From Minisyncoccia bacterium (GTDB lineage: Bacteria; Patescibacteriota; Minisyncoccia; Phycocordibacterales; Phycocordibacteraceae), in contig JBBQUV010000001.1 in assembly GCA_038212075.1 (NCBI GenBank), forward strand, positions 99,200 to 163,199: a stretch of 64,000 nucleotides of DNA, given 5' to 3'. How positions within the stretch are numbered: the stretch's first letter is position 1; every line of letters begins with the position of its first letter. Below, in pieces: positions 13,406 to 53,880 of this stretch. Position numbers and translations under genes: made by a program. Below the pieces are notes generated by a model. It did not search any database. It was not told the DNA's origin and saw only the letters and a list, made by a program, of their open reading frames with translations.

Positions 13406-13407
13406 GT

Positions 13408-13773: not shown

Positions 13774-13834
13774 TATAATACTTTTCGGACGTTGGGTACA
13801 CGGTGGAGTTCAATCTTGAAAACAAGAGGGTCCA

Positions 13835-14134
13835 ATGTCCAAAGTTGTAAAAGTACCGTATCCGGTGAATGCCAAGCTTGGTCAATCCGTAAGGATTACG
13901 GGCATTCTCCCAACACGTGCTCGTGACGTTGCTATCGCGGCGTTTGACGCCTTCGAAAAACACTATTGCGGCACTGTTGAAGTGATTGGTCGGCCTGACG
14001 GCATCCACCTCACCCGTCCGTTCGCGGTTGGTGCAAGTGGTATCGAGGAGGACGCGGAAGAATTCGCGCTGTCCATCGAGAAGTATTTCGGCTTCAAAAC
14101 CGAAACTTCGCCAGTACAAATGATGTTCGCCTGA
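13835..14134 (+). CDS. hypothetical protein (99 aa)
   Basis: ORF with upstream AGAGGG ribosome-binding site; no recognisable domain. Confidence 0.5.
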   Translation: MSKVVKVPYPVNAKLGQSVRITGILPTRARDVAIAAFDAFEKHYCGTVEVIGRPDGIHLTRPFAVGASGIEEDAEEFALSIEKYFGFKTETSPVQMMFA

Positions 14135-14140
14135 ATAACC

Positions 14141-14200
14141 GAACGAGAGACGAGTGGTGTCGCAGAACGCGACTCCCTCGTTCTCCCGGGCGGTTTTTTG
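14141..14200 (+). terminator. putative Rho-independent terminator
   Basis: Imperfect long hairpin (gaacgag...ctcgttc) then cccgggcgg followed by tttttt. Confidence 0.4.
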
Positions 14201-14268
14201 ATACTTGCCTTCCCTATATTTTATGCTATATTTACTGTGTTCGGTTTAACCAAAGAGGAGGATGTCGC

Positions 14269-14667
14269 ATGAGCGACACTACGTTCTTTAACACAACCAA
14301 CCCGAAGCCACAGACTATTCCCGTCGATGTACGGGGATATACCTGGCCGAGGAGACTCACAATAATTGCTTGGGCGTTACTCACTACGGTGATTATCGCC
14401 CTTACTGCTTTTGATTTTGCGTGTTTTAACGCAGGATCGGAACTCTTCTGGGATATTTCATGGAAACTTGTACCGAACTATGAGTTCGCCAAGCCCGTGA
14501 TTCATCACTTTAGCGTTCCGCTGATTGATTGGGGACGATATCCATCGTTCTTCCTTTCCGTCTGCCTTGGAATCAAGACGCTTCTTGCGCTCTTTGTTCC
14601 GCCGGCAATCCGCACGCACCATGTCCGCTTCGAGCTGACAGAAGTGCCTGCACCTCAAAAAAAATAG
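14269..14667 (+). CDS. hypothetical membrane protein (132 aa)
   Basis: Strong ribosome-binding site (AAAGAGGAGG) 7 nt upstream; two predicted TM helices. Confidence 0.55.
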   Translation: MSDTTFFNTTNPKPQTIPVDVRGYTWPRRLTIIAWALLTTVIIALTAFDFACFNAGSELFWDISWKLVPNYEFAKPVIHHFSVPLIDWGRYPSFFLSVCLGIKTLLALFVPPAIRTHHVRFELTEVPAPQKK

Positions 14668-14836
14668 CAATTATTGCGAATCCCAACGGTTCGCATCTCA
14701 ACGACTCACACTCACCAACCAAGGAGGCTACTATGCCATCACTGACTGAATGAATGTCCGCCGCAGAGCTCTGCGAACCGTTTTTTGGTATCTACGCTTC
14801 ATATTTACTCAATTTCCTGTTATAAAAACTGTACTT

Positions 14837-33323: not shown

Positions 33324-34535
33324 TCATTGCTTCATGGTGAGGATGATTTCCTCCACGCCATTAGGCAGGTTGGTAACGCGAACGTCACTCAGGCCAACGC
33401 CTTTGTGAAGAACGCGCATTGCCGGCTTGCCGGGACGTGCCGGTTGGACGAGCACGAACGGGTGCTCGCTGTCGACTGCGGGCGCGGGGCCTGCATCGAC
33501 AACCGGTTCTGCGGCCGCCGGAGCGGTCTGCGGAACCGGTGCTGAGGCAACCGGCGTTTCCGTCGGTTGCACCGCGTCTGGAACGAAGCAGAAGTTGGAA
33601 TTCAGCTTCTGATCCTCCATGCCGGAAAGGTCGTTCCCGCATTCGCGCAGGAAGTACACAACCTTCCGTTTGCCACTCGGCAAACGCGCAAAGCCACGGA
33701 ACGCCCGCTGGCCGGTGTGGTTGAAGCCCTCCACACGGCCGTCACCAAACCGGACCATCCGGTAACCCCACACGCGTCCGGAGGTTACCTGTTCTATCTT
33801 GAGCTGAGCGGCCGGTATTCCGGTCTGCCGAGCGGCGATGTCGAGCAGGTGTGTGCTCGCATCTTCAAGATTGTTCACCCCGCCATGAATGACTGGCGGG
33901 CCGGCGTTTACCGGATCGCGGTTCATTTCAAGCACTCGGTCCTGTACGGTCCGGTCGGACCTACGGGCCGCGCGCTCCCTTGCGAGATCGGTGAGCGCTG
34001 TCTCTGCGCGACGATACTCGTCGTTCCAGTTGCTGTTCAGTGCTTTGGCACGCTCCCGCGCACGATTGCGTTCTAGCCACAGGGCAAGAGCAATCGCCGC
34101 AAGAATGGCGAACAGAAGCCAGAACAACGGCAGGATGCCGTCGAACCACCCTGATGCGACGACAGGTTTGGAAGCTGTCGCATGCACAGCCTTTGGCTGT
34201 GCCGGAGGTGGTACGAACGCCGGCTTTTGTATGTCGCCGGTGTTGGTGAGTCCCTGCAGGCACTCGCCGGGTTTGAGGATCAAAATGGTGATCCTCTGAC
34301 CGTTCACGAATAGCCGGCCAGGCTCATGAATCTGGAGATTTGCATCCCAGACCCATTTGCGCCACGACGTGGCGTCGTGGTGATATTTTTCGGCGAGTTG
34401 CCACGCCGTATCACCCGTTTGAACCGTATAGCCATTGCATGGCGGTACGATCCAGTTGGATTGGGTGGTTGCAAATGCCGGCGTTGCCGCAAGCATCAGG
34501 AGCGCGATAAGCGCCATCACAATTTTTTTTCGCAC
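33324..34535 (-). CDS. LysM domain-containing membrane protein, GC-rich gene
   Basis: Signal peptide, LysM motif (YTVQTGDTAWQLAEKY), central TM helix, about 220-aa C-terminal domain of unknown function; local GC about 60-65%. Confidence 0.65.
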   Translation of the reverse strand: MRKKIVMALIALLMLAATPAFATTQSNWIVPPCNGYTVQTGDTAWQLAEKYHHDATSWRKWVWDANLQIHEPGRLFVNGQRITILILKPGECLQGLTNTGDIQKPAFVPPPAQPKAVHATASKPVVASGWFDGILPLFWLLFAILAAIALALWLERNRARERAKALNSNWNDEYRRAETALTDLARERAARRSDRTVQDRVLEMNRDPVNAGPPVIHGGVNNLEDASTHLLDIAARQTGIPAAQLKIEQVTSGRVWGYRMVRFGDGRVEGFNHTGQRAFRGFARLPSGKRKVVYFLRECGNDLSGMEDQKLNSNFCFVPDAVQPTETPVASAPVPQTAPAAAEPVVDAGPAPAVDSEHPFVLVQPARPGKPAMRVLHKGVGLSDVRVTNLPNGVEEIILTMKQ

Positions 34536-38695: not shown

Positions 38696-39937
38696 TTAGG
38701 GGGTGTCTACAGTGACCGTAATTTTTGTAGGATCAGCTGGATATGCGCCCCGCCAGAAAGGTCGGAGATTTATGATTGCTTGGCCAATTTCCGGAAACCC
38801 ATCGCTTAGCACTGATTTTGCCGCCGCGGAGCTTTTACCAGCAACCGCACCCGCAATCCTAGCCTTATCAATGTCCCAAACGACAGAAGCGGTTCCTGAA
38901 AGAGTGAAGGAATAGGGGGTATTTGCGGCAGGAGCGGTCTCGGCAACTGCGGGTGTGAGGGCAAGGCCGCTCACTGCTTTTAGTGTTACCAGCTGACCGG
39001 TATAGTCTTGACCGGCCACTTGGCTTGCAATCGCTTTTGCAAATGCAGACGCGGGGAACACCACCGCAGTCGCGGTTGCTTGCTCTTTAATTAGTACGCC
39101 ACCGTTTGCGTCTGCGGAGTCTGGAAGCGGTGCATAGGCCGTGACGACGCTACCGGGGATAAGTACGTATCCGTCGGGAACCTTTGGTGAAATTTCGGCC
39201 GAAATAGTGCCTGCGAGCGTTGCTTTCAATTTTGCGTGCGCCGCATCATCAGTTGCTTGGCTTACTGAAGGGCGTTTACCCGTAAAGCCGCCAGCCATAG
39301 CGCTTGTAGACTTTGCATACACTAACTTCGCTTGCGGTGTTGCCGAAAGTCCAGGGAGTGTAAAGCTGGTTGCGCCAATGTTGTAACTTTCGCCTGCAGA
39401 ATCGGCATAGACAGTGGCAGTAACTGAACCCGGTGTTCCGCCTTTTGCGGGAGGAATCGTTACGGAGTCGTGAATACGGAAAATAAGTCCGGCAGAGGTC
39501 TGAAGACGGGTATTTTTTATCAGGTCTTGCGATTTTGCTTGCTCGTTGTACATAGTGACCGTTCCTTGTGCGGTATCGTTAGCGGCAACGGTGCTTTCCG
39601 CAGGAACGCTTTGACTCGCCACCTTTTGCACGGTAACGAGCGCAAAGGGAAGGTCGCCTGAAGCGGGGGTTGCGATGAAGGGGCCCGCCACCGTACCCGT
39701 GCTTACTTTCGGCACAATTTCAACTTCGTTGGAAGAAAAGAACATAAGTACGCCATACGAAGCGAGAACAAGAAAAAGGCAAACACCTGCGGTAATCCAT
39801 GGGAATTGATGCCGCGGAAGACGGGCATACAGCGGTGGACGTGACTCAGGTGGTGGCGCTGGTTCGTACTGAGGAGTTGGGGCATCGCTTACGCGGCGGC
39901 GTGATGGAGGAATGATGTCATTTATGGTTCGTGGCAT
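38696..39937 (-). CDS. hypothetical membrane-anchored protein, Pro-rich cytoplasmic N-terminus, single TM, large extracytoplasmic Ala/Thr/Ser-rich domain
   Basis: 413 aa; architecture only, no recognisable catalytic motif. Confidence 0.5.
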   Translation of the reverse strand: MPRTINDIIPPSRRRVSDAPTPQYEPAPPPESRPPLYARLPRHQFPWITAGVCLFLVLASYGVLMFFSSNEVEIVPKVSTGTVAGPFIATPASGDLPFALVTVQKVASQSVPAESTVAANDTAQGTVTMYNEQAKSQDLIKNTRLQTSAGLIFRIHDSVTIPPAKGGTPGSVTATVYADSAGESYNIGATSFTLPGLSATPQAKLVYAKSTSAMAGGFTGKRPSVSQATDDAAHAKLKATLAGTISAEISPKVPDGYVLIPGSVVTAYAPLPDSADANGGVLIKEQATATAVVFPASAFAKAIASQVAGQDYTGQLVTLKAVSGLALTPAVAETAPAANTPYSFTLSGTASVVWDIDKARIAGAVAGKSSAAAKSVLSDGFPEIGQAIINLRPFWRGAYPADPTKITVTVDTP

Positions 39938-39988: not shown

Positions 39989-41140
39989 TCACGCACCAAG
40001 ATCGTCAATACGTTTGCCTTGGTACAAAGCAAGCATCATAAGGAAGAGGTCGGCAGAACCGCTTGCGCCAATTTTTATGTGAGGCAAAAATTGTGACGCA
40101 AGCACAGGCAGGATAGAAAGTGGTTCGTCTGAAAGCCACAACGTACGCAAGCGGCTATCATCGAGCGCGTGTCGAATATAGTCACGAACAGGATCGTCAG
40201 AGAGAAGGAATATGGTGCGCGGGAGCGCGTGTCGTTCAGAATATGCTTTCAAGGCTTCCAAAATTTCAGTAAGCCATGTATCTCGTGCCTCAGAAATATT
40301 GGCTGTTTGATTTTTGATAAGGTGAACCCCATCTTTTACTTCCTGCATATCGGAAGTTGGCGGCACAGCGTTTCCGAGTGTTTTTAGCAGATGATGCACG
40401 CCGTAGGGCACGGAAAGCACGGAAGAAAGGAATCCGTGTCTGATAAATACCATCTCGGTTGCCTCTCCCGTAACGTCTATCACCATAAACTCACGTTCGT
40501 GAGGATACATATCCCGCAATACAATGTAGGCAAGCGGTGCGAATGCGGTAAAAGTGATGTGGTGTGAGTGATACGACGCACGAAGCGCCTTGCGCACTTT
40601 GTCGGTTATGGATTCTTCAACGGTTGAAGACAGGATGACAATCTCGGCTAATTTTGCCTGCTTGCCAAACGGTTGGCTTGTCTGGTATCCGTTTAATCGC
40701 ACAGCGATAGCAGATTCTCCAGAAGATATTCTTCCTGTCGGCAATTGTGCTGTTTTCTGAACCACTGTTTGCAACATTGCTCGGGTGAATGTGAATGGTT
40801 TAGCTTCCTCGATGCGTTCCAGACGCACCTTGGTGTCTTGCCATGGTGCGGCAATGGAAACAAACACTTCCCCTACGCTTCCGGAACCGGTCGCGCGGCG
40901 TAGTGCTGAAGCACCTGCGATAGTGAGTTCTTTGTTTACGGCAACGAGAGCACGAAGCATTGACGACTCAACGGATTCATCAGGGTGTATGGTAATGGGC
41001 ACACGAACCGCATATTCCAGCGTTGGTCCATTTTTACCGAGCGAAAGATACCCACCGCCAACGGAACCAGACCCGATATCAATCAGCGCAATAGAGGTTG
41101 ATCCAAGTGAAAAAAAATTCCCAAAAAGACCCATGCACAA
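39989..41140 (-). CDS. actin-like ATPase (ASKHA superfamily) protein; FtsA/PilM/Ppx-like fold, function unassigned
   Basis: N-terminal phosphate-1-like IALIDIGSGSVGGGY, then a second glycine motif (MVIDVTGEATEM) and an overall two-domain layout of about 380 aa. Confidence 0.45.
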   Translation of the reverse strand: MCMGLFGNFFSLGSTSIALIDIGSGSVGGGYLSLGKNGPTLEYAVRVPITIHPDESVESSMLRALVAVNKELTIAGASALRRATGSGSVGEVFVSIAAPWQDTKVRLERIEEAKPFTFTRAMLQTVVQKTAQLPTGRISSGESAIAVRLNGYQTSQPFGKQAKLAEIVILSSTVEESITDKVRKALRASYHSHHITFTAFAPLAYIVLRDMYPHEREFMVIDVTGEATEMVFIRHGFLSSVLSVPYGVHHLLKTLGNAVPPTSDMQEVKDGVHLIKNQTANISEARDTWLTEILEALKAYSERHALPRTIFLLSDDPVRDYIRHALDDSRLRTLWLSDEPLSILPVLASQFLPHIKIGASGSADLFLMMLALYQGKRIDDLGA

Positions 41141-45092: not shown

Positions 45093-45761
45093 TTAGAGCC
45101 AATCAATAGGTGCTTGCCCGTGCTGAATAAGGTACTCATTTGCTTTGATGAAATGATTGTTTCCAAAAAATCCACTATGTGCAGAAAATGGTGATGGGTG
45201 TGGTGATTCAAGTACGAGATGTTTGACCCGATCAATGTGTGCGCCTTTTTGTTTTGCATAGTTTCCCCAGAGCATAAACACAAGATGCTCACCTTTATCG
45301 GAAAGGGCTTTGATGGCGGCATCAGTGAACAATTCCCATCCATGGCCTTGGTGGCTGCCGGCCGTGTGGGCGCGCACCGTAAGTGTGGCGTTTAAAAGCA
45401 GTACTCCCTGCTGTGCCCAGCGCGAAAGATCACCACTCGTATGTACTGGCGGTTTTTTATATTCCGCTTCGATCTCTTTAAAAATATTTTGAAGCGACGG
45501 TGGGATTTTTTGCTCGGCGTCTACCGCAAACGACAGTCCGTTTGCTTGCCCTTGACCGTGATACGGATCTTGGCCAAGTATCACGACCTTCACATCATCA
45601 AAAGGGGTAAGTGCAAACGATCGAAATATCGCCTTTGGTGACGGGTACACGGTAGCTTCCCCATATTCCTTCTTCACGAAATCAGTGAGTTCCTTGAAGT
45701 ACGTCTTCCCGAACTCCTCTTCAAGAGCTTTCTTCCATGACGCTTCCATTTTTACCTCCAT
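45093..45761 (-). CDS. ung: uracil-DNA glycosylase (family 1)
   Basis: VVILGQDPYHGQGQANGLSFAV water-activating/uracil pocket motif and a C-terminal HPSPLSA-like motif (HPSPFSA). Confidence 0.9.
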   Translation of the reverse strand: MEVKMEASWKKALEEEFGKTYFKELTDFVKKEYGEATVYPSPKAIFRSFALTPFDDVKVVILGQDPYHGQGQANGLSFAVDAEQKIPPSLQNIFKEIEAEYKKPPVHTSGDLSRWAQQGVLLLNATLTVRAHTAGSHQGHGWELFTDAAIKALSDKGEHLVFMLWGNYAKQKGAHIDRVKHLVLESPHPSPFSAHSGFFGNNHFIKANEYLIQHGQAPIDWL

Positions 45762-45821
45762 GCATCCAGTATACAGAAAACCGGGTCGTGTGAAGACGCC
45801 GGCTTTTTGTCCTTTCTCGGA

Positions 45822-46274
45822 TTAGATTGGTCCGCGACCAAAGACTTTTAAGAGACAGGCATTCACATAGCCAAGGTTCGTTTCGTAGTCTTGTTGGATG
45901 AGAATCTGGCTACCTTCATCGAAGCTGTCCATGGGAACAAAACCTTTTTCGTTCCCTGTGCTTATACCGAGCACTGTTCCTTTTCCGCGGTAATCAAGAT
46001 ACGCACGTCCAGCTGATCGATTGTACAAACGAACACCGATGTCTTCGTCGATGGTGACCTCGATCACCAACGGGATATCTTTCCCTGAATGTTGTATGTC
46101 TGGAATGGTTCCGACGCATTTGATCGGTACGCAAGTATCTGCGTCTCCGTCGCAGTCAAAACTTTTGATCAACTGAATCAAAACCTTTCCGTACGGCGGA
46201 CTGATATGCCCCGGTTCCACCGAGGCGGGAAGAACCACTACAGAAAAAGCTGAAACAAGTAACATCATGCGCAT
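45822..46274 (-). CDS. hypothetical secreted protein (150 aa)
   Basis: Signal peptide; no recognisable domain. Confidence 0.45.
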   Translation of the reverse strand: MRMMLLVSAFSVVVLPASVEPGHISPPYGKVLIQLIKSFDCDGDADTCVPIKCVGTIPDIQHSGKDIPLVIEVTIDEDIGVRLYNRSAGRAYLDYRGKGTVLGISTGNEKGFVPMDSFDEGSQILIQQDYETNLGYVNACLLKVFGRGPI

Positions 46275-46354
46275 GCACGCTACTCCCGAAGCTCCGAGAT
46301 GAACCTTACTCCCTACCTGCTATCGGTCAACTGTGTGCAGGGGATATTCGTTGG

Positions 46355-46645
46355 TTACTTTTGAATTCGTAAACCCTTTATTGAAACACCCTCGCTCCTC
46401 AGTATGCTCACTTTCATAGAAGGGCCGCCACGATTGTATTCACCAATAGTGCCGTCGGCTCGCACAACACGATGGCAGGGCACGGTAGGATCGTAATTGT
46501 CGCGCATAATAGTGCCCACGGCACGTGCCGCACCTGCGTGTCCGGTAGCAGTGGCCACTTCTCCGTACGTACGCGTTTGTCCTTTCGGAATATGTCGAAC
46601 GGCAGAGCGTACTAAATCTGCAAACACGGTTTTCTGTATAGACAT
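46355..46645 (-). CDS. MGMT-family protein, C-terminal alkyltransferase/DNA-binding domain only
   Basis: PCHRVV active-site motif (VPCHRVVRADGTIGEY) within a roughly 97-aa product. Start chosen at the internal ATG because the longer ORF overlaps the upstream gene. Confidence 0.7.
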   Translation of the reverse strand: MSIQKTVFADLVRSAVRHIPKGQTRTYGEVATATGHAGAARAVGTIMRDNYDPTVPCHRVVRADGTIGEYNRGGPSMKVSILRSEGVSIKGLRIQK

Positions 46646-46646
46646 A

Positions 46647-47429
46647 TTAGGCTTTCTTTTTCTTTGCATGGATTTCTTGAAGCTTTTCACCAGCATATTT
46701 GCGGTACGGACAAAACTTGCACGCACTTCCTGTTTTTGGAATGTCTTCCGACATCAGACACTCTTTCAGTGAATCAAGGACGGCAGGAATCCACGAGTCG
46801 TCACCTTCATATGGCAGAATGGTTACTTCAAATTCAAGCTTGCCGTCAAATGCCTTACGGTCGTTTTGGCCGTTTGCGTATACAAAATAGGCAGTGGGCG
46901 ATACGGTAAACCCATTTTGACGAAGTAACCATTGATATATTTCCGCTTGACGTTTGTAGCCATCTTTCCACTCGTCATCCATCGTCACCGTTTCTTTGCC
47001 TGCCGTTGCCTTGTAATCTGCTACATGCAATTCCCCTTTACTGTTTTTCCAGATATCGTCCACGCCACCACGCACAATTAAGTTTGCAGGAGTATAGAGT
47101 GCCTTTACGCCACGCTTCAGCGCGTCGCGCCATTCGTCCATTCTTGAATCATCAAAAGGTACCGCATCAATGCCGTACTGTTTCATCAAAGGATGCGGCT
47201 TCCCATTTGCACGATATATATCAAATTCTTTCTTAAACAGTTCGTCCACGGCATTATTGAGCGTGAACGGAAAGCTATCAGGTCGCCCGATGCCGTACCG
47301 CGCTTCCATCCAGTAACACCGCGCGCATTCCGTAAAGAATTCTATCTTGCTACGACTTATGGTGTACGGTTCTTTTTGTTTCGGGTTAAATCGTCCCCTT
47401 TCCCACTTAAGTTTATATTCAAACGCCAT
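46647..47429 (-). CDS. PD-(D/E)XK nuclease family protein, Cas4/RecB-like (4 Cys, probable Fe-S)
   Basis: GGVDDIW...ELHVADYKATAG matches the Cas4/RecB nuclease motifs II-III. Cys pairs sit at the N-terminus (ECARC) and C-terminus (CKFC). Start at the internal ATG (MAFEYK). Confidence 0.65.
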   Translation of the reverse strand: MAFEYKLKWERGRFNPKQKEPYTISRSKIEFFTECARCYWMEARYGIGRPDSFPFTLNNAVDELFKKEFDIYRANGKPHPLMKQYGIDAVPFDDSRMDEWRDALKRGVKALYTPANLIVRGGVDDIWKNSKGELHVADYKATAGKETVTMDDEWKDGYKRQAEIYQWLLRQNGFTVSPTAYFVYANGQNDRKAFDGKLEFEVTILPYEGDDSWIPAVLDSLKECLMSEDIPKTGSACKFCPYRKYAGEKLQEIHAKKKKA

Positions 47430-47430
47430 A

Positions 47431-47958
47431 TTACGGATTGGTGTGGAAGAGTGCGATGACACGCTGTCCTGAATCGTAATCAACATACACACTGTCGGCA
47501 TGAAGATCAAATACCCCGTCACCATCATCGCGATAGAGGACAACGGCGTAGGTTTGTCCGGGAAGCGTGTTGCGAAGTAGATGTACCGCGACATTTGATT
47601 CTGAGCCCGCGGTGCCGGCAACACCAAGGATATTACCCAAATCGTTTCCGTGCAGTTCTACTATCGCAACCCATACACCGGGAGCAGGAACAGAAACCGT
47701 ATCAACCACAGCGGCATTGCCCGCGTCTTGATCGTGCACCGTAAGAAGCCCTGAGGAGACGTGTTCTTCAAACCCAGAATTGGTTGTTGAAGAGGTATTA
47801 GGAGTGGCGTTGACCGTATTCTGTGCCGCGCGTAAATCAGTTTCTACAAACCACGCGCTCGCGCACAGCACACCAAGAAGAAAACTGATGCCAGCAATAA
47901 CCACCCCATGACTTTGGCGTGGGGCAGGTGAAAGCATTAGTTCGGTGCTAGGCGTCAT
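47431..47958 (-). CDS. hypothetical membrane-anchored protein
   Basis: N-terminal TM helix, no recognisable domain. Start at internal ATG (MTPSTEL). Confidence 0.45.
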   Translation of the reverse strand: MTPSTELMLSPAPRQSHGVVIAGISFLLGVLCASAWFVETDLRAAQNTVNATPNTSSTTNSGFEEHVSSGLLTVHDQDAGNAAVVDTVSVPAPGVWVAIVELHGNDLGNILGVAGTAGSESNVAVHLLRNTLPGQTYAVVLYRDDGDGVFDLHADSVYVDYDSGQRVIALFHTNP

Positions 47959-48820
47959 ATACGGTTGTTTCGGACAAACTGTTAATTTCCGAGAGTATAG
48001 CGCCAATTCGTTCCGGTGTAACGCCAAACTTTCGCAAGACAGTTCGGTGCTCAAGAAGCATTGCTGAAGTTACAATTCCCTGGTCTACCAGAAGGCGTTT
48101 TTCAGACCGTTTTAGATTTGTAAGCGTCGTGACGGGATAAATACCAGCGCTGATAATACGATCGTATAAATTGCCCTCATCGGGGAAACTCCAGCCAAGA
48201 AGTTCTAGGCCGGCGCACATAGAATATTCAATGGCCTGACTCGTGAATTTAGTATTTGTAATAAGCATTCCGCGTCCAATAGGACAATTGCGTACGCGCG
48301 GATCGCAATGCCAAATATCTTCAAACCGCGCTTTCACATAGAGTGCTGTTTTTACATCCGTTTTATAAAACGCATCGTTGTGGTATTTCAGTTCTGCGGC
48401 AAGCGTCTCTTTTCCGCGTGTCGCGTACACATCTACTTCGTGGGTAACACACTTTCCTTGTATAATCTTGCGCCACTCCACATTCCACCCTTCGGCTTTA
48501 AACAGTTGCGCAACAAAATCTTCAAACGGATGTCCTGAAGGACCGAACTCAAGAAGCGCACGACGGAGAGCATAGCGTGCGGCAACCGAACGTGCTTCGC
48601 GGCGCAACATGGCAAATGCTTTGCGATAAATTTCTTGAGATCGCACCTCGCTCCCCATGGCGGCCGTAATGGTGTGCGTAATGCGTTCTGCGGTATGTAT
48701 GCCTGCGCCAGCATGACGCAGTGACGCAATCAATTTTTCTCCATCAAATCGTTCAATCGAACCGTCGGTTTTAACGATGGATGCGGCACTTTTTGAACGT
48801 ACAGTGAATCCTTGTGGCAT
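47948..48820 (-). CDS. ATP-cone domain fused to PD-(D/E)XK (Mrr-like) restriction endonuclease domain
   Basis: N-terminal ATP-cone (IVKTDGSIERFDGEKLIASLRHAG), then a nuclease core with D...ExK (HEVDVYA...AAELKYH). Confidence 0.65.
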   Translation of the reverse strand: MPQGFTVRSKSAASIVKTDGSIERFDGEKLIASLRHAGAGIHTAERITHTITAAMGSEVRSQEIYRKAFAMLRREARSVAARYALRRALLEFGPSGHPFEDFVAQLFKAEGWNVEWRKIIQGKCVTHEVDVYATRGKETLAAELKYHNDAFYKTDVKTALYVKARFEDIWHCDPRVRNCPIGRGMLITNTKFTSQAIEYSMCAGLELLGWSFPDEGNLYDRIISAGIYPVTTLTNLKRSEKRLLVDQGIVTSAMLLEHRTVLRKFGVTPERIGAILSEINSLSETTVYDA

Positions 48821-48822
48821 AG

Positions 48823-49227
48823 CTAAGGAGTCGTCGTTGCGAATGCGCCATTCGTGTAAAGCATGACAGGAGCGTTTGCGGGCGCAGACACTGAAAGAGT
48901 GAAGGTGTGCGGTGTAAGAAGCTGTAAACACATTCCTTCATCCACCGGCGCCGCAAGGTCTACACGAATCGTGGGCGTACTTGTACTGTCAACAAGTGAG
49001 CTGGTAGCTGAAAGTGCCGTACAGGCCGTCGGCACACTCGCCGTCACCCGCACAGTATGAACACCTTTCGAGTATTTATTGGTGAGCTGTATCTCCGTAA
49101 TGGCCGCGTTACCCGAATCAAGCATTGGTGTTTCTGGAGCGGTGCTCTCCGTAATATGAAACACGAAGACTCCAAACGCAATGATTACGACCACTAAAAA
49201 GATTCCTGTCGCCATCCACTTCTTCAT
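48823..49227 (-). CDS. hypothetical secreted protein (134 aa)
   Basis: Signal-anchor followed by a Ser/Thr/Ala-rich domain. Confidence 0.45.
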   Translation of the reverse strand: MKKWMATGIFLVVVIIAFGVFVFHITESTAPETPMLDSGNAAITEIQLTNKYSKGVHTVRVTASVPTACTALSATSSLVDSTSTPTIRVDLAAPVDEGMCLQLLTPHTFTLSVSAPANAPVMLYTNGAFATTTP

Positions 49228-49241
49228 ACGCCTATTCTACC

Positions 49242-50276
49242 TCACTCCTCTATCACTGCACCACCAACCAACGTTTCGCCTCGATAAAACACCACGGATT
49301 GCCCAGGGGCACACTGTTCGGAAAGTGGTTTTATAGGCGTGAATGTATGGGAGGACGTGTCCAGTATTCCCTCTACTAATGGACCATGGTACCGAGTCTG
49401 AGCAGATACAGCACCTTCTGTAGACGTAAACCAATGTAGGTTTGAAAAACGGATAGAGTTATGTATCTTTCCTGACCGGAATGGAGTGTTTGCGACCATC
49501 AGTGTATTTTTTTGAATATCTTTTTTCATTACATACCACGGGCCGGGCGGTGCGCCTTGTATATTGGCTCGCTCGCCAAGGGTGTAGCTTATGGCACCTT
49601 CGTGCGTGCCCATTTCTGATCCTGTTTCGTCATAGGCATTACCACGAGTGAGTCCAATTTCTGAGCGCAGGAAGTCTTCTATGGAAACAGCGCCAAGAAA
49701 ACAGATGCCTTGGCTGTCTCGCTTCTGTGCAACCGGTAGTGCGTATCGAGCCGCTAGCGCACGTACATCGGTTTTATGGAGATTTCCAAGAGGAAAAAGA
49801 AGCGACGGAAGCGTCTCTTTTGATATCGCCCATAAAAAATAGCTCTGATCTTTTGCCGTATCGATACCTCGCAATAATGCACCGTCAACTACTCGCGCGT
49901 AATGCCCCGTCGCTACAAAATCTGCACCGTGTTTTTTAGCAAACGTATAAAATGCACCAAACTTAACATCACGATTGCAAAAAATATCAGGGTTCGGCGT
50001 TCTTCCCACAGCATATTCGCGCACCAAGTAATCAATGACACTTTTTTTGTATTCAACCGATGCATCAAGTGTGACAAAAGGAATATGTAGTTTCGCCGCA
50101 ACGCGCATAGCGTCACGACGATCCTCAGCCCACGTACAGGGCAACTCGGGCGGATACCACCCCTTTATGAAAACACCGGTTACCTCCGCTCCCTCAGCCT
50201 GAAGCAGTGCGGCGGTGACCGCAGAATCTACGCCGCCAGAAAGCCCAACAAACACTTTTTTAACTTTCACGTTCAT
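49242..50276 (-). CDS. mnmA: tRNA-specific 2-thiouridylase
   Basis: PP-loop SGGVDS at the N-terminus, catalytic Cys region, 344 aa. Confidence 0.9.
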   Translation of the reverse strand: MNVKVKKVFVGLSGGVDSAVTAALLQAEGAEVTGVFIKGWYPPELPCTWAEDRRDAMRVAAKLHIPFVTLDASVEYKKSVIDYLVREYAVGRTPNPDIFCNRDVKFGAFYTFAKKHGADFVATGHYARVVDGALLRGIDTAKDQSYFLWAISKETLPSLLFPLGNLHKTDVRALAARYALPVAQKRDSQGICFLGAVSIEDFLRSEIGLTRGNAYDETGSEMGTHEGAISYTLGERANIQGAPPGPWYVMKKDIQKNTLMVANTPFRSGKIHNSIRFSNLHWFTSTEGAVSAQTRYHGPLVEGILDTSSHTFTPIKPLSEQCAPGQSVVFYRGETLVGGAVIEE

Positions 50277-50316: not shown

Positions 50317-51324
50317 CTAGTCTAGGTACTTCGCACGGTTTATTTTGTGCTCAGCAAAGGTTTTTGCGTAATGCATTAGTCCATCTTGACCCGTTAGGTA
50401 ATAGAGCGCGTCGGTTTTTATAGGTGTAACCGCGGCATAGATAGAGTTCGCGCTTGGGTTTCCAATGGGACCGGGCGGAAGCCCTTTGTGCGTGTAGGTG
50501 TTATAGCTTGAATCTGTTTTTAGTTCACTAAATCTTGGACTGTACGTATCCCGGTCGTTAATGTATCCGAACACCGCATCTACTTGAAGCGGCATGCCGA
50601 GGCTAATGCGGTTCCATAAAATACCCGCAACCATTTGCTTCTCACTTACCGAGCGTGCTTCTTTTTCAAGAAGCGAGGCCATAATTAAGTCGTCTTGGAG
50701 CGGTTTATTAAACGCCGTGACTACGGAAGCAAGGTCTGCTTCATGCGTTTTAAAATTGTCATACATTTTTGCCACTACTTCGTCCGAAGTAGTATCAGGA
50801 TAAAAGAAATACGTATCGGGGTAGAGATATCCTTCCAGAGGAACGGCTTGTGCAAGGAAGGCATTGGTATTGAAATCAGGAAATGCCGCAGTCAGCTGAC
50901 GCGCCATATCACGCACGGTCGCACCTTCTCTGAAAGTAATACGCGTTGCGGTAATGCCAAATACACCACCTTCTACCCGCGATTCTATTCCAAATAACCC
51001 CGCAGGGCTTGCAAACACGTATCTACCTGCTTTTGCACTGCCACCCCGAAGTCGTCCGAGTACGGTAAACAGAAAAGGTGAGCGAATCACATGTTGCTCG
51101 GCAAGGCGTGCTCCAATACTAGTGAAACTTGAACCTTCGGTGACGTTTATAATTTTACCAACAGGAAAGTCTGACGGTGGCGCAAGAAAAATATACCAAC
51201 CAGAAAGCACGAGTACAGCAACCGCAAGTATCGCTGAAAGATATTCAGTTTTTAACCGCGACACGTTCATTTCTATAACGGCAAATGTTGTTTTTGCCAT
51301 TTGTATAAAGAGTGAGTCGTTCAT
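50317..51324 (-). CDS. mltG: endolytic murein transglycosylase MltG (YceG family)
   Basis: N-terminal TM helix, then a YceG-like domain (YPDTYFFYPDTT..., LQVDAVFGY). Confidence 0.8.
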   Translation of the reverse strand: MNDSLFIQMAKTTFAVIEMNVSRLKTEYLSAILAVAVLVLSGWYIFLAPPSDFPVGKIINVTEGSSFTSIGARLAEQHVIRSPFLFTVLGRLRGGSAKAGRYVFASPAGLFGIESRVEGGVFGITATRITFREGATVRDMARQLTAAFPDFNTNAFLAQAVPLEGYLYPDTYFFYPDTTSDEVVAKMYDNFKTHEADLASVVTAFNKPLQDDLIMASLLEKEARSVSEKQMVAGILWNRISLGMPLQVDAVFGYINDRDTYSPRFSELKTDSSYNTYTHKGLPPGPIGNPSANSIYAAVTPIKTDALYYLTGQDGLMHYAKTFAEHKINRAKYLD

Positions 51325-52754
51325 TATGTGGGAAGGTTGGACGGTGCTTCTGTCGTTGCTGACTGAATACGGGGCAAATTTGGTGCCGCAACCGTTGATG
51401 AAGGAATGTGAAAGAGTGAGGCAATTTCTTCGTTACTCATCTGCATATACGGTCCAATATACGGGAAATGAAAATATGAACGCCGACGCGCAAATTCAAG
51501 CGCTTCCTCCATTAAGTGCTGACGACGGGTACCCTTCGGGTCTTCCCATGGAAAGTCGTTCAATTCTTCAGAGAAAAGCGTGGCAGGTTTTAGATAATTC
51601 AACTGTTCTGAAGTATAGGGTCGGAATATTTGCGTAACAAATGCGCCAATATAATCGCGGTAGTGCCCTTCTTTTGCAAAGTAAATGGAACGAATGCCAA
51701 CATCCCACCCAGGCTTTGCGACATTGCGCTCAATGGCGGCCATTGTTTCGCTGTCACCCTTGCTTGGGTTTGGAAAGCCGTCAGATTCTCGTTTTTCGTG
51801 AGTAACGGGGTCGGTAAAGATTGTTTTTTTAACGGTACTTTCTTTAATTTTTTTAATTTCTTCTTTTGCTTCATCACGCCACGTGTATCGCTTGCCGTCC
51901 TTGTACACACTTTCATACCCGTGTTTTTCACCTTTCGTATAGCGAATCATAATGTGAATCCACAATTGTTCGTTTGGACCCAGTGACCCCAAAAACTCAA
52001 TCACTTGCGCCATGGGATCAGTTACCTCTTCCGGTTCCGGTGCTGGTTGTTTATCCATCAAATAATCCACGTACGTTTTAATAGGGTACGGACTTGGTTT
52101 ATCTTTTTTATATTCGCAGGCAAACATTTGGTACGGTGGCTGTGTCGGGTCAACAAGACGCGTATAGTCCACCGCCTCCACTACTTCAATGCCAGGATAT
52201 TGTGCATAGAAATACGTTTCAACAATATGCCGCATTGGTGCACGCACCCATACATATAAATGCACGCGTCCACCAAGCGACACCATTTCAAGCGAATACC
52301 ATACGCGTGTGCGGCCAAGCCACCAGCGCTTGTACCACGTCCCTTGTCCCGGGGCGATGTGAATGTTGGACAGAATTACTTCCATGGAAAGCGGGGATTT
52401 CAATGTTTCTCGAGGGATACGCAATTCAAGAAGTACGTTGCGTTGCGCCACGTTAAAACCATACTGTCGCGAATCTACCCACCGCACCCATGCATTTTTA
52501 CCAAGAAGAAAAGTAAGCCATACCGGTGAAAGGAGCATCACCATTTGAAAGTTGTACAGCGCTTGTTGCGGGTACAAAACAACAAAAATGACGTTCACTA
52601 CCGCAAACGGTATGGAAATCGCATTAAACGGGATTTTAAGTCCATTTTCTTCGTGGAGTTTGTGCCGGATGCCGTCAACAAATGAAAACAACGGCAAACT
52701 AAGTCCACCTCCTTTTCCGCCAGTACCTGACATTGCAAAAAGTATACCACCCAC
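51324..52754 (-). CDS. hypothetical membrane protein (476 aa), translationally coupled to mltG
   Basis: Two N-terminal TM helices then an about 380-aa soluble domain. The stop overlaps the mltG start (ATGA). No recognisable domain. Confidence 0.55.
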   Translation of the reverse strand: MGGILFAMSGTGGKGGGLSLPLFSFVDGIRHKLHEENGLKIPFNAISIPFAVVNVIFVVLYPQQALYNFQMVMLLSPVWLTFLLGKNAWVRWVDSRQYGFNVAQRNVLLELRIPRETLKSPLSMEVILSNIHIAPGQGTWYKRWWLGRTRVWYSLEMVSLGGRVHLYVWVRAPMRHIVETYFYAQYPGIEVVEAVDYTRLVDPTQPPYQMFACEYKKDKPSPYPIKTYVDYLMDKQPAPEPEEVTDPMAQVIEFLGSLGPNEQLWIHIMIRYTKGEKHGYESVYKDGKRYTWRDEAKEEIKKIKESTVKKTIFTDPVTHEKRESDGFPNPSKGDSETMAAIERNVAKPGWDVGIRSIYFAKEGHYRDYIGAFVTQIFRPYTSEQLNYLKPATLFSEELNDFPWEDPKGTRRQHLMEEALEFARRRSYFHFPYIGPYMQMSNEEIASLFHIPSSTVAAPNLPRIQSATTEAPSNLPT

Positions 52755-52809: not shown

Positions 52810-53880
52810 TTAGACCGCGGCGTACTTGCCTTCTTTGGTGCGTTTAAAGTAACGCGTGTCGTTAAGATTCACCAAGATAGTGTTGTCTTTTACGTAGCGA
52901 ACCTTCTTTACTTCTTCCATGACGCGTTCGCGCGTAAGAGCACCTTGTGCTTTTAGAATGTCGCGAATAACATCACGCACCACTCCTGGTTGGTAGCCCC
53001 ATTCTGCAAGCGCATAGAGGCCACGACCAACAAGTACGAAACGAGGATCTTTGATCAATTCGTTGTGTGTCGTTGCAACATGTGCCTTCTTTGCAAACAT
53101 AGTGCTGATGGTTTTTGCAACATCAGAGAAGTGCATTGGCTTACCGTGTTGCTTGATAACGAGAAACGCGTAGTCGCGGATTCCTTTTGTTCGAATGGTT
53201 GGACTTGCGGCACGACCCCATTCTGAAAGAGGATTCGATGCGATGGTCTTTGAAAGGGAGAGCCAACGCTTCATTATTTCTTCGTTTTTGTAGGCATCGT
53301 TTACACCCTTAAGTTCATCAAGGAAACGGTCAAGAAGTTCGCCTTCCGGAAGCACGTCGCTGTCTTCAAGTGACGCATAGAGTGAAGAGAGTGCTTCATG
53401 CACTTTTTCTGCAGTCGTTGCATCAACATGCCATCGAGCATAGAAATCATCGGTTTCGCGTTCGCGGAAAAAGGCACTTCCTACAACGAGGAAGAAGCGG
53501 TAACGATTGCGAGTTTTTTCGTCTTTGGTAAGCCCAGCAAGAAGTTCATCTTCAGGAACGATCCCACCAAGAGACTCAATGTGGGAACGGAGTGTTTCAA
53601 AAACGGGCTCTGCGTCTTTAAATGATTTACTTGCACGAACAGCGTCAAGACCAGCGCCTTCAATCTGACGAACGCGCTCGCGAGTAATACCCCAACCCTC
53701 GCCGATTTCCTCAAGCGTCTGACGGTCTGCCGATGTACCAAGGCCAAAACGGAAGGTAAGAACCTCGCGGGCACGGTCAGGAACTTCAGAAAGAAGTTTT
53801 TTAGTAAGGGCGGTTGTGTCCATAGAAAACGCCGCGGGAGTAGTTTTTTTCTTTGAAGGGGTGGTTCCGGTTTTTGCCAT
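52810..53880 (-). CDS. sigma-70 region 4-like HTH fused to C-terminal HARE-HTH domain protein
   Basis: N-terminal VLTFRFGLG...TLEEIGEGWGITRERVRQIE (sigma region 4.2) and a C-terminal segment (...DPRFVLVGRGLYALAEWGY) matching the HARE-HTH signature of RNAP delta-like proteins. Confidence 0.6.
   Translation of the reverse strand: MAKTGTTPSKKKTTPAAFSMDTTALTKKLLSEVPDRAREVLTFRFGLGTSADRQTLEEIGEGWGITRERVRQIEGAGLDAVRASKSFKDAEPVFETLRSHIESLGGIVPEDELLAGLTKDEKTRNRYRFFLVVGSAFFRERETDDFYARWHVDATTAEKVHEALSSLYASLEDSDVLPEGELLDRFLDELKGVNDAYKNEEIMKRWLSLSKTIASNPLSEWGRAASPTIRTKGIRDYAFLVIKQHGKPMHFSDVAKTISTMFAKKAHVATTHNELIKDPRFVLVGRGLYALAEWGYQPGVVRDVIRDILKAQGALTRERVMEEVKKVRYVKDNTILVNLNDTRYFKRTKEGKYAAV

Follow-up and report, generated by a model that had tools for sequence, protein, structure and literature searches.

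Introduction

To our knowledge, ATP-cones are known from experiment solely as allosteric switches of ribonucleotide reductases (RNR) and of NrdR, a bacterial repressor of RNR genes. In NrdR, a protein of about 150 amino acids, the output that is coupled to the ATP/dATP pool is DNA directed: a four-Cys zinc ribbon at the N terminus, ahead of the cone, binds NrdR boxes. A sensor of an adenine-nucleotide-derived ligand is joined to a PD-(D/E)XK nuclease in Can2, Card1, and Cdn1, in which the sensor is a CARF domain, the ligand is the cA4 or cA3 of type III CRISPR systems, and the context is defense. The type IV enzymes Mrr, MspJI, and AspBHI have an Mrr_cat PD-(D/E)XK catalytic domain, an N-terminal reader of modified DNA (winged helix or SRA-like), a patchy distribution, and a role in defense. 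XPF, Mus81, and Hef, members of the ERCC4 nuclease family that lack a nucleotide-sensing domain, carry a helix-hairpin-helix (HhH) DNA-binding tail behind a restriction-endonuclease-like nuclease domain. AF1548 of Archaeoglobus fulgidus (PDB 1y88), which consists of Mrr_cat and the AF1548-like_C domain (PF22357), is a structural-genomics protein that has been predicted to be a restriction endonuclease, with D38, E51, and K53 as catalytic residues (PMC1821046).

The gene described here joins an ATP-cone to an AF1548-like nuclease. It lies in the genome of a Minisyncoccia bacterium (Patescibacteriota; GenBank assembly GCA_038212075.1, contig JBBQUV010000001.1), within a stretch of 64,000 nucleotides (positions 99,200 to 163,199) that was analyzed as a whole and is referred to as the window; coordinates below are positions in the window. 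Like NrdR, the product has the ATP-cone fold, most of the inner-site adenine-nucleotide contacts, and a putative DNA-directed output coupled to the ATP/dATP pool, but the cone is N terminal, the output domain is a nuclease, there is no zinc ribbon, and the protein is 290 amino acids long. It shares the catalytic domain of Mrr, MspJI, and AspBHI but has an ATP-cone in place of the reader, and its gene behaves like part of the conserved core. Literature searches found no description of the fusion, and no biochemical data for any member of the family were found in the searchable literature.

The gene and its start codon

The complete gene, identified from its open reading frame and translation, occupies 47948..48820 on the minus strand, with the ATG start at 48820 and the end of the stop codon at 47948. 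Public data include a protein identical to the 290-amino-acid product (P0001). The peptides on which the first-pass annotation had relied are located at residues 15 to 38 (IVKTDGSIERFDGEKLIASLRHAG), 127 to 133 (HEVDVYA), and 141 to 147 (AAELKYH). The longest mechanical reading frame starts at a GTG at 48931. This start was rejected, and 48820 was accepted as the real one, because all 38 close homologs begin no more than about 20 residues from this ATG and because the extension would overlap the upstream open reading frame at 48823..49227. In the resulting protein the cone directly follows a variable tail of 0 to 20 residues.

The upstream frame (48823..49227, minus strand) encodes a small membrane-anchored protein of 134 amino acids for which a Pfam scan gave no match. 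Its stop codon lies 2 nucleotides ahead of the start codon of the nuclease gene, and it is therefore an operon neighbor of the nuclease. Homologs of the 134-amino-acid protein are found at the equivalent position in 20 to 23 related loci.

Domain architecture and fold

The first-pass annotation described the product as an ATP-cone fused to a nuclease. Pfam, alignment with AF1548, and superpositions of an AlphaFold2 model all bear out the fusion, but a two-domain description overlooks a third domain, AF1548-like_C (PF22357). The protein comprises an ATP-cone (residues 14 to 87), a PD-(D/E)XK nuclease of the Mrr/AF1548 type (about 95 to 210), and an AF1548-like helical C terminus (about 211 to 285). 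With Pfam, Mrr_cat (PF04471) matched residues 95 to 207 above its gathering score (E = 1.2e-5; 25.8 bits, cutoff 21), and ATP-cone (PF03477) matched residues 14 to 87 just under its cutoff of 25.8 bits (E = 8.4e-5; 23.5 bits). The homolog P0041 scores 28.6 bits for the ATP-cone, which is over the cutoff, and many relatives carry a precomputed PF03477 assignment. AF1548-like_C exceeds its cutoff in the homologs P0041 and P0082. A scan of the 290-amino-acid protein against NCBIfam assigned no family, its sole match being meaningless (E = 0.2). The quality of the matches is far beyond chance, and the fused architecture at 47948..48820 is real.

Homology with AF1548 extends over about 180 residues, spanning both the nuclease core and the helical domain at the C terminus. 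As a single sequence the protein aligns with AF1548 over residues 102 to 279 (E = 3.6e-22); a profile of the family does so over profile positions 93 to 276 (E = 1e-51), with the nuclease core running directly into the AF1548-like domain at the C terminus. The catalytic D/E/K and a conserved Cys pair (the equivalents of C124 and C202) are common to both proteins. AF1548, at 199 amino acids, is without the ATP-cone, and an insertion specific to Paceibacteria (C172...C179) is absent from it.

The AlphaFold2 model of the 290-amino-acid protein has a pLDDT of 94.2 and a pTM of 0.90, the latter implying that the domains would be packed against each other in a defined way. The N-terminal domain of the model superimposes on NrdR ATP-cones, which are four-helix cones with a beta-hairpin lid (9fvr, 9fxk, 9gex, and 7p37), with an rmsd of 1.7 to 2.8 Å over 81 to 85 residues, and RNR cones are likewise among its structural matches. 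The rest of the model matches AF1548 with a TM score of 0.76. Can2, Card1, and Cdn1, which follow an equal design principle, are also among the structural matches, but their sensor has no sequence relationship to the ATP-cone, and the 290-amino-acid protein gave no match to a CARF domain.

The C-terminal domain, delimited as residues 211 to 290 (47951..48190, minus strand) from PF22357 in the homologs and the AF1548 alignment, has five helices in the model. When it was modeled alone, it matched AF1548 (TMq of 0.70) and then just non-significant HhH proteins; the weak matches of HhH-type fold included Pol kappa and RAD51-paralog domains. From these non-significant fold matches, the domain is a probable nucleic-acid-binding module of the HhH type. 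The likeness to XPF, Mus81, and Hef in the tail is accordingly one in which the HhH nature of the present domain is weakly supported.

The ATP-cone as a putative nucleotide sensor

The ATP-cone (residues 14 to 87; 48560..48781, minus strand) is, from Pfam, superposition on NrdR, and residue mapping, a putative adenine-nucleotide sensor. Retained cone residues are K17, G20, F25, K29, S61 (mostly T in the family), Y83, and K/R86. The inner-site contacts of Escherichia coli NrdR, V51, K53, E59, F61, K65, L66, S105, and I108, correspond here to I15, K17, E23, F25, K29, L30, S61, and I64, respectively. Of these, E23, L30, and I64 are conserved as well, and K/R86 likewise maps to an NrdR contact. 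Conservation was evaluated in 87 diverse relatives that are 31 to 52% identical to the query. In this set K/R86 is found in every member, K17 in 86, T/S61 in 84, and F25 and K29 in 82 each. With a mean pairwise identity of 35.8%, compared with 40.5% for the nuclease domain, the cone is under the same degree of constraint as that domain. Because the contact residues are mostly kept and the cone is constrained like the nuclease, a nucleotide-gated nuclease is a reasonable mechanism to propose from the sequences.

The cone also departs from that of NrdR. It has about 8 fewer residues. The KRDG motif lacks its canonical second basic residue, whose place is taken by T in this protein and by A or S across the family, and the outer-site Tyr of NrdR (Y131 in E. 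coli) is not conserved. Since this basic residue and this Tyr are missing, the identity of the ligand and the discrimination between ATP and dATP are uncertain.

The nuclease active site and the linker

The first-pass annotation had also claimed an intact D...ExK core, and the wider alignment agrees: none of the 87 relatives lacks the helix residue E100 or any of D130, E143, and K145. The core (Mrr_cat/AF1548 type, residues 101 to 210; 48191..48520, minus strand) was placed with Pfam Mrr_cat and the AF1548 alignment. D130, E143, and K145, whose codons read from the sequence are 48431-48433, 48392-48394, and 48386-48388 on the minus strand, align with D38, E51, and K53 of AF1548. H127, E128, R165, D168, and N189 are invariant or nearly so among the 87 members. 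From these intact invariant residues, we propose that the PD-(D/E)XK domain is catalytically competent.

Cone and nuclease core are joined by a linker, LLEFGPSGHPFE (residues 88 to 100; 48521..48559, minus strand), defined from the alignment of the 87 members. No other segment of the protein is as conserved: its mean pairwise identity is 68.6%, compared with 36 to 41% in the flanking domains, and G93, G96, F99, and E100 are invariant within it. Because it is the most conserved segment and terminates at the catalytic E100, this GPSGxPFE linker is a candidate for an allosteric coupling element.

Genomic context in Patescibacteria

The Patescibacteria loci have a conserved same-strand array of mnmA, the ATP-cone nuclease gene, a gene for a Cas4-like PDDEXK_1 nuclease, ogt, and ung. 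In the window, all on the minus strand, mnmA (tRNA 2-thiouridine synthase; identified with Pfam) lies upstream at 49242..50276, and the PDDEXK_1 gene lies downstream at 46647..47627 (Pfam PDDEXK_1, E = 4e-10). The PDDEXK_1 product has a C-terminal Cys cluster, its similarity to Cas4 is weak and under the cutoff, and its true start is probably inside the open reading frame 46647..47627. The same codirectional array continues at 45093..46726 with the DNA-repair genes ogt (46355-46726; Pfam DNA_binding_1) and ung (45093-45761; Pfam UDG) and, alongside them, an unannotated reading frame of 150 amino acids.

The arrangement recurs. In 71 of 75 loci the next gene upstream is mnmA, in the same orientation and with a spacing that is mostly 0 to -4 nucleotides. 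Of 74 loci, 71 have the PDDEXK_1 gene downstream in the same orientation, at a median gap of 1 nucleotide; the 4 kb downstream include ung in 69 of these 74 loci and ogt in 38. Synteny with mnmA, PDDEXK_1, and ung is retained in 69 to 73 of 74 related genomes, and the ATP-cone nuclease gene diverges no faster than the adjoining aminoacyl-tRNA synthetase genes. The gene is chromosomal, conserved, and housekeeping, and the family, of which the protein is an ordinary member, is widespread, comprising no fewer than 1,022 clusters at 50% identity and no fewer than 6,551 at 90%. The synteny within Paceibacteria may come partly from shared descent. One divergent Patescibacteria member (L089) has neither this context nor that of the Bacteroidota.

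A four-gene cassette in other phyla

In Bacteroidota and Chlamydiota the ortholog is the first gene of a four-gene cassette located within stress islands of Usp, glycolysis, and P-type-ATPase genes. The cassette encodes the ATP-cone nuclease, a beta-CASP nuclease, an enzyme of the thymidine/AMP-phosphorylase family, and a PRPP-synthetase-like enzyme; Pontibacter and Criblamydia share this cassette. Among the Bacteroidota-type loci with at least 5 kb of downstream sequence, the beta-CASP gene is adjacent in 27 of 39, often overlapping the ATP-cone nuclease gene. The beta-CASP partner in Bacteroidota and Chlamydiota is similar to aCPSF1 and includes an RMMBL "RNA specificity" domain. In addition to the phosphorylase-family and PRPP-synthetase-like enzymes, neighbors with roles in nucleotide or energy metabolism or stress include phosphofructokinase (PFK), FBP aldolase, GAPDH, 2-hydroxyacid dehydrogenase, phosphoketolase, acetate kinase, and Usp. 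A Bradyrhizobium trio of MBL, PRPP-synthetase, and thymidine-phosphorylase genes (bll3115-3117) is induced in microoxia (PMC6515984).

Local HMMs for beta-CASP, the thymidine phosphorylase family, PRPP synthetase, Usp, P-type ATPase, PFK, and others, with a positive control that worked, detected none of the Bacteroidota cassette partners within 8 kb on either side of the gene in 80 Patescibacteria loci or in the whole window. Because the neighborhoods differ between lineages, the physiological role may also differ by lineage.

Proposed function

We consider it about an even call that the protein is an adenine-nucleotide-gated endonuclease that serves nucleic-acid turnover, in salvage or repair, together with a second nuclease encoded next to it, rather than restriction or phage defense. 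The product of this chromosomal, vertically inherited gene would be a three-module enzyme in which the N-terminal cone binds ATP and/or dATP, the C-terminal helical domain holds nucleic acid, and occupancy of the cone toggles the nuclease on or off. The toggle may operate through oligomerization, as with the ATP-cones of RNR and NrdR, and/or through the linker ending in E100. The ATP-cone nuclease would make the first cuts, and the fragments would then be degraded by the second nuclease, the Cas4-like PDDEXK_1 protein in the Patescibacteria lineage and the beta-CASP protein in Bacteroidota and Chlamydiota.

Such a system could tie nucleic-acid turnover to the adenylate or dNTP pool. Bacteria of the CPR are without de novo nucleotide synthesis and have many nucleases (PMC7786006). 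In a nucleotide-auxotrophic Patescibacterium the role may be nucleotide salvage and/or repair, and in other phyla it may be nucleic-acid catabolism during energy or oxygen stress. The architecture, the active site, the ligand-contact residues, the conservation, and the neighborhoods are direct observations; from them we infer ligand binding, the direction of gating, the substrate, cooperation with the neighboring nuclease, and the physiological role.

Alternative explanations

The first-pass annotation suggested an infection- or stress-sensing effector. The stress half fits better, given the Usp-rich stress and energy islands of other phyla, whereas the infection half is not supported by the genomic evidence. 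An anti-phage or abortive-infection effector would be an Mrr-like nuclease released once infection perturbs the ATP/dATP pool. The catalytic fold is indeed common to Mrr, MspJI, and AspBHI and to the ligand-gated defense nucleases Can2 and Cdn1; PADLOC matched the protein weakly (E = 8e-4) to the nuclease domain of ZorD; and the Criblamydia copy is plasmid borne and lies about 8 kb from an AbiE toxin-antitoxin pair. However, the methyltransferase or defense neighbors expected by that annotation are not found among the window genes or the ten flanking genes. There is no methyltransferase among the roughly 40 annotated genes of the window and none that recurs in the neighbor clusters of about 160 loci, the ten genes flanking the ATP-cone nuclease matched no defense system in PADLOC, and neither integrase or CRISPR features nor, specifically, a CRISPR array or cas genes were found in the window. 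The distribution is not that of a patchy, mobile, defense-island gene: synteny is stable, divergence is at the rate of aminoacyl-tRNA synthetases, and the family occurs in 0 of 50,697 phage records, 0 of 2.9 million viral contigs, and 2 of 72,556 plasmids. The protein has an ATP-cone at its N terminus, with no modified-DNA reader domain found, and its conserved partners in other lineages are metabolic. On genomic context, conservation, and a lack of mobility, the restriction or defense reading was rejected as quite improbable. An annotation as "Mrr-like restriction endonuclease" is thus no evidence for defense.

More credible, but still unlikely, is a nuclease of repair or recombination, either structure specific like XPF, Mus81, and Hef or resembling a Holliday junction resolvase, that acts with the Cas4-like nuclease, Ung, and Ogt, with the cone licensing cutting solely when dNTPs or ATP allow repair synthesis. 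It would account for the same-strand downstream genes in Patescibacteria, for the layout of a nuclease followed by a helical tail with weak HhH-type matches, and for the name "Holliday junction resolvase-like predicted endonuclease" that some pipelines give to relatives. However, such names are automatic annotations, synteny within a class can be a matter of inheritance and not of function, and the conserved partners beyond Paceibacteria are genes of nucleotide and energy metabolism and stress, not of repair. Biochemically this explanation overlaps with the gated endonuclease that we favor, and only the physiological role differs. The RMMBL domain of the aCPSF1-like beta-CASP partner raises the question of an RNA-directed enzyme, one that cuts rRNA, tRNA, or mRNA and feeds the beta-CASP ribonuclease in energy stress or dormancy. 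Can2 and Card1, the nearest ligand-gated structural analogs, cleave RNA as well as DNA, and the cassette supplies ribose-phosphate metabolism. We regard this as improbable; the partners in the lineage of the window are DNA enzymes (the Cas4-like nuclease, Ung, and Ogt), the C-terminal domain is closest, though weakly, to DNA-binding HhH modules, and Mrr-type cores act on DNA. Least probable is an NrdR-like regulator whose cone and DNA-binding nuclease-fold and HhH domains would repress or activate its operon according to the ATP/dATP ratio, with no cutting. NrdR does couple the identical type of sensor to another DNA-binding domain, and the Bacteroidota gene lies inside operons that it could control, once overlapping an ArsR-type HTH gene. 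But the invariance of the four catalytic and several second-shell residues, in relatives this divergent from the query, is unexpected for a pure DNA binder; the gene is usually in the middle of an operon, with overlapping stop and start codons, and not at a regulatory position; and the NrdR-type zinc ribbon is absent.

Implications

Returning to the adenine-nucleotide-gated endonuclease, the neighborhoods suggest a further and more speculative scheme, which we consider rather unlikely as a whole. In Bacteroidota, Chlamydiota, and perhaps other groups, the ATP-cone nuclease, controlled by the nucleotide pool, may gate a catabolic or salvage route induced by stress or low oxygen. This route would proceed from the endonuclease to the beta-CASP exonuclease, an NMP or nucleoside phosphorylase, and the PRPP-synthetase-like enzyme and then feed into glycolysis or the phosphoketolase route, and nucleic acid would thereby be burned for ATP. 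The Patescibacteria version would be an RNR-style "ATP on/dATP off" valve that, with the Cas4-like exonuclease, sets the dNTP supply from salvaged DNA.

The family is core-like in one major lineage of Patescibacteria, organisms obliged to scavenge nucleotides. If its members are ATP-cone-controlled nucleases, the ATP-cone switch would extend to nucleic-acid degradation, a new class of sensor would be added to the ligand-gated PD-(D/E)XK nucleases, and AF1548, whose structure was released in 2004, would acquire a function. The presence of the cassette across phyla and the availability of cultured carriers, including Psychroserpens ponticola, Pontibacter actiniarum, and Chitinophaga eiseniae, make the question directly testable.

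Domain architecture of the nuclease

The nuclease gene (47948..48820, minus strand) reads from an ATG at 48820 to its end at 47948 and encodes a 290-aa protein containing the exact peptides quoted in the first-pass annotation. The open reading frame can be extended mechanically up to a GTG at 48931. This start was ruled out, and 48820 was accepted as correct, because 38 close homologs begin within ~20 residues of the ATG and because the extension would overlap the ORF at 48823..49227, which is upstream and terminates 2 nt ahead of the nuclease ATG.

Fusion of an ATP-cone to an Mrr-like PD-(D/E)XK nuclease, as the first-pass annotation had described, was confirmed by Pfam, by alignment with AF1548, and by a structural model, with three domains rather than two. 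Mrr_cat was detected at residues 95 to 207 (E = 1.2e-5; 25.8 bits, exceeding the cutoff of 21). The ATP-cone match at residues 14 to 87 (E = 8.4e-5; 23.5 bits) was slightly short of the Pfam cutoff of 25.8, which homologs of the protein exceed. The third domain, AF1548-like_C (PF22357), had gone unnoticed and was detected via homologs with Pfam. Residues 102 to 279 align with AF1548, an Archaeoglobus fulgidus structural-genomics protein that has no ATP-cone (PDB 1y88; E = 3.6e-22 with the single query and 1e-51 with the family profile). In an AlphaFold2 model computed from 87 diverse relatives (pLDDT 94.2, pTM 0.90), the N-terminal domain matched NrdR ATP-cones at 1.7 to 2.8 Å over 81 to 85 residues, and the remainder matched AF1548 with a TM of 0.76 (Foldseek). 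The nuclease matches after AF1548 were the Mrr-type enzymes MspJI and AspBHI and the ligand-gated Can2 and Cdn1. The protein genuinely belongs to the AF1548-like/Mrr_cat nuclease family, and its ATP-cone is, as modeled, structurally bona fide.

The C-terminal domain is predicted to comprise five helices and, when modeled alone (pLDDT 84), matches AF1548 with a TMq of 0.70. Its other fold matches were all to helix-hairpin-helix DNA binders (BAF, the Pol kappa thumb, and RAD51-paralog N-terminal domains). Because all of these were non-significant, helix-hairpin-helix-type nucleic acid binding by this domain is plausible but weakly supported.

Relatives numbered 1,717 among 3,011 scored candidates. 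Clustering at 50% identity gave at least 1,022 clusters with E ≤ 1e-3 and 372 with E ≤ 1e-30, nearly all of 275 to 295 aa; at 90% identity, with a Chlamydiota member as the seed, there were at least 6,551. Automatic names for the family include "restriction endonuclease," "ATP cone domain-containing protein," "ATPase," and "Holliday junction resolvase-like predicted endonuclease." No published description of the fusion, or experiment on it, was found in the literature searched. The window's gene is one ordinary representative of this large, already domain-annotated family.

Conservation of the catalytic site, sensor, and linker

In 87 cluster representatives that were just 31 to 52% identical to the query, E100, D130, E143, and K145 were invariant (87/87), as were G20, G93, G96, F99, G122, E128, R165, D168, N189, and P229. 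D130, E143, and K145 align with D38, E51, and K53 of AF1548, residues predicted to be catalytic in the GOS protein-family paper (PMC1821046), from whose numbering the PDB chain is offset by 13. The catalytic D...ExK residues are therefore intact, as had been proposed.

The inner-site nucleotide contacts of Escherichia coli NrdR (V51, K53, S54, E59, P60, F61, K65, L66, S105, and I108; 10.1101/2025.03.28.645925) correspond in a profile alignment, in order, to I15, K17, T18, E23, R24, F25, K29, L30, S61, and I64. K17 is conserved in 86/87 sequences, F25 and K29 in 82/87 each, and T or S at position 61 in 84/87; position 86 is K or R in all 87. In this protein the KRDG motif has T in place of its Arg, and most relatives have A or S there; Tyr131 of the NrdR outer site has no conserved counterpart in the family. 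These two absences would make one nucleotide site in the ATP-cone more likely than two.

Mean pairwise identity among the 87 sequences was 35.8% in the cone, 40.5% in the nuclease, and 32.1% in the C-terminal domain. The 13-residue linker LLEFGPSGHPFE, whose last residue is the catalytic E100, reached 68.6%, by far the highest value of any segment. This pattern would be expected if the sensor were coupled to the catalytic center, although it falls short of proof. C124 and C202 are kept in 85/87 sequences, and AF1548 shares both. A second pair, C172 and C179, is invariant in the Paceibacteria clade, inside a clade-specific insertion or loop (WxCDPxxxxCP). All four cysteines fall within the nuclease core (48191-48520, minus strand), and the pairs could represent a metal site or a disulfide.

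Genomic context in Patescibacteria

The window is core chromosome, with six aminoacyl-tRNA synthetases, dnaB, recR, rmuC, ftsW, dnaK/J, rpoA, rpsD, atpD, and ychF. Close relatives of the nuclease occurred in 296 species, almost all labeled Patescibacteria, Paceibacteria, or Parcubacteria, when one genome from each GTDB species was scanned. Among 74 related loci in which ORF calling recovered the nuclease gene, 73 had mnmA upstream in the same orientation; with the window included, mnmA directly adjoined the nuclease gene in 71 of 75, mostly with gaps of 0 to -4 nt. A Cas4-like PDDEXK_1 nuclease was downstream in 71/74 loci (median gap, 1 nt), ung in 69/74, and ogt in 38/74. This arrangement suggests a nuclease/repair operon characteristic of this clade of Paceibacteria. 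Median identity to the window's copy was 64% for the nuclease, compared with 59% for mnmA, 66% for leuS, and 71% for alaS, and on this comparison the nuclease gene evolves like a housekeeping gene.

In the window, the Cas4-like gene (46647-47627, minus strand) precedes ogt and ung and encodes a standalone enzyme whose C terminus bears a Cys cluster (...SACKFCPY...); no cas genes or CRISPR array accompany this gene. Between it and the ATP-cone nuclease gene is a gene for a DUF7282 membrane-anchored protein (47431-48054, minus strand), found at that position in only 14/74 related loci; its ORF as listed runs 107 nt into the 3' end of the nuclease gene, and a later start at ~47937 is more likely. 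Upstream of mnmA/mltG is a gene (51324-52754, minus strand) for a 476-aa protein that has a membrane segment in its N-terminal part and matched nothing in Pfam, NCBIfam, or PADLOC. Its retention on the same strand in 60/75 related loci (median identity, 47%) nevertheless marks it as a conserved unknown of the lineage. A highly conserved 356-aa protein combining Sigma70 region 4 with HARE-HTH (52810-53880, minus strand; median identity of 71% in 41 related loci) has an unusual architecture for an apparent core transcription factor. The string of housekeeping genes also contains three minus-strand ORFs (33324-34535, 403 aa; 38696-39937, 413 aa; and 39989-41140, 383 aa) with no Pfam match, and the last two had no NCBIfam match either.

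A divergent Patescibacteria ortholog (P0378 at locus L089, region 13008-14825; 41% identity) lacks the mnmA context and also the cassette described below. The presence of a DNA methylase/Eco57I-like gene ~5 kb downstream of this ortholog, in the opposite orientation, was judged coincidental because it does not recur.

A conserved cassette in Bacteroidota and Chlamydiota

Relatives with 34 to 42% identity in Bacteroidota and Chlamydiota have the identical three-domain layout in a neighborhood that is recurrent and unlike that of Patescibacteria. A metagenome scan and contig look-ups yielded 83 such loci. Among the 39 with at least 5 kb downstream, a beta-CASP/RMMBL nuclease, often overlapping the nuclease gene, was at +1 or +2 in 27, a 500-aa thymidine-phosphorylase-family enzyme in 18, a PRPP-synthetase-like enzyme in 18, and a P-type ATPase in 13. 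Of the 51 loci with 3 kb or more of sequence upstream of the nuclease gene, 22 carried a tandem-Usp gene there, at a spacing of -4 to +3 nt. Other recurrent neighbors, all of them same-strand genes, encode PFK, class I FBP aldolase, type II GAPDH, 2-hydroxyacid dehydrogenase, MgtC, and an SDF transporter. With NCBIfam, the phosphorylase was assigned to PRK04350 and TIGR02645, the archaeal long type, while scoring under the AMP-phosphorylase equivalog cutoff, and the ribose-phosphate diphosphokinase was assigned to PRK07199.

PGAP annotates the cassette in the cultured Pontibacter actiniarum (plasmid NZ_CP021236.1, 1972-6597) and in Criblamydia sequanensis (plasmid NZ_LK031773.1, 8995-13602) as an ATP-cone protein, an MBL-fold hydrolase, a thymidine phosphorylase family protein, and a ribose-phosphate pyrophosphokinase. 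The Criblamydia cassette is flanked by P-type ATPase, phosphoketolase, glycogen phosphorylase, and acetate kinase genes, and in Psychroserpens ponticola the nuclease gene is within the glycolysis/Usp island. Cassette loci were also seen at L084, L088, and L090 to L169. The four-gene cassette is conserved across phyla and appears to be undescribed. In Bradyrhizobium diazoefficiens, three of its four gene types (MBL-fold, PRPP-synthetase, and TP-family) have counterparts in the neighboring genes bll3115-3117, which are listed as induced under microoxia at the protein and transcript levels (PMC6515984). An AAA_28 (NadR-type nucleoside-kinase-like) gene that overlaps or lies near the ATP-cone nuclease gene in some Bacteroidota (Chitinophaga eiseniae, 8866-9489 of L173; Psychroserpens, 10622-11083 of L172; six loci in the metagenome set) is a further link to nucleotide metabolism. 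The Bacteroidota partners were absent from the window and from ±8 kb of 80 Patescibacteria loci in a search whose positive control worked.

Possible function

In both contexts the ATP-cone endonuclease is followed directly by a second nuclease, Cas4-like PDDEXK_1 in Paceibacteria and beta-CASP elsewhere, and both pairs adjoin lesion-processing (Ung, Ogt) or nucleotide/pentose-phosphate enzymes. The families of both partner nucleases include 5'-3' exonucleases. From this shared arrangement, we propose, with about an even chance of being right, a nucleotide-switched endonuclease that acts with the adjacent nuclease in salvage/repair or in stress catabolism. The cone would bind and read the adenylate or dATP pool and so switch the endonuclease on or off. 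Nucleotide-driven oligomerization is established for RNR and NrdR ATP-cones, and switching might proceed in the same way or via the linker. The neighboring nuclease would then process the fragments. Among the main rivals, we consider a dedicated repair or recombination nuclease rather unlikely and an RNA-directed enzyme very doubtful.

The first-pass annotation had suggested a plausible infection- or stress-sensing effector. The family was found in none of 50,697 phage records, in none of 2.9 million viral contigs, and on 2 of 72,556 plasmids. No methyltransferase, integrase, or CRISPR array was found across the window, and the ten flanking genes matched no defense system, giving only fold-level matches (the Cas4-like nuclease and the mnmA PP-loop domain). 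Conserved synteny on the core chromosome, housekeeping-like evolution, and near absence from mobile-element collections argue against a restriction or defense role, and a defense effector is highly improbable. Unlike type IV or type II restriction systems, the protein has no modified-DNA reader, methyltransferase, or defense-like distribution. Least probable of all is an NrdR-like regulator, a reading disfavored because the catalytic tetrad is invariant; the NrdR zinc ribbon is also absent. The protein lacks the CARF domain and CRISPR association of CARF nucleases. Its predicted design is like that of Can2/Card1, a ligand-gated PD-(D/E)XK nuclease, whereas its sensor is of the RNR/NrdR type.

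If the nucleotide-switched endonuclease is correct, its role in the patescibacterium would be salvage and/or repair. CPR bacteria lack de novo nucleotide synthesis and have many nucleases, presumably for nucleotide retrieval (PMC7786006). In Bacteroidota and Chlamydiota, nucleic acid breakdown under stress would feed energy metabolism. The fusion would be no surprise to a specialist in domain architecture, yet it is widespread and core-like, has cultured carriers, and offers a clear, testable hypothesis. Mechanistically, control of a nuclease by an ATP-cone would be a new variation on known ligand-gated nucleases.
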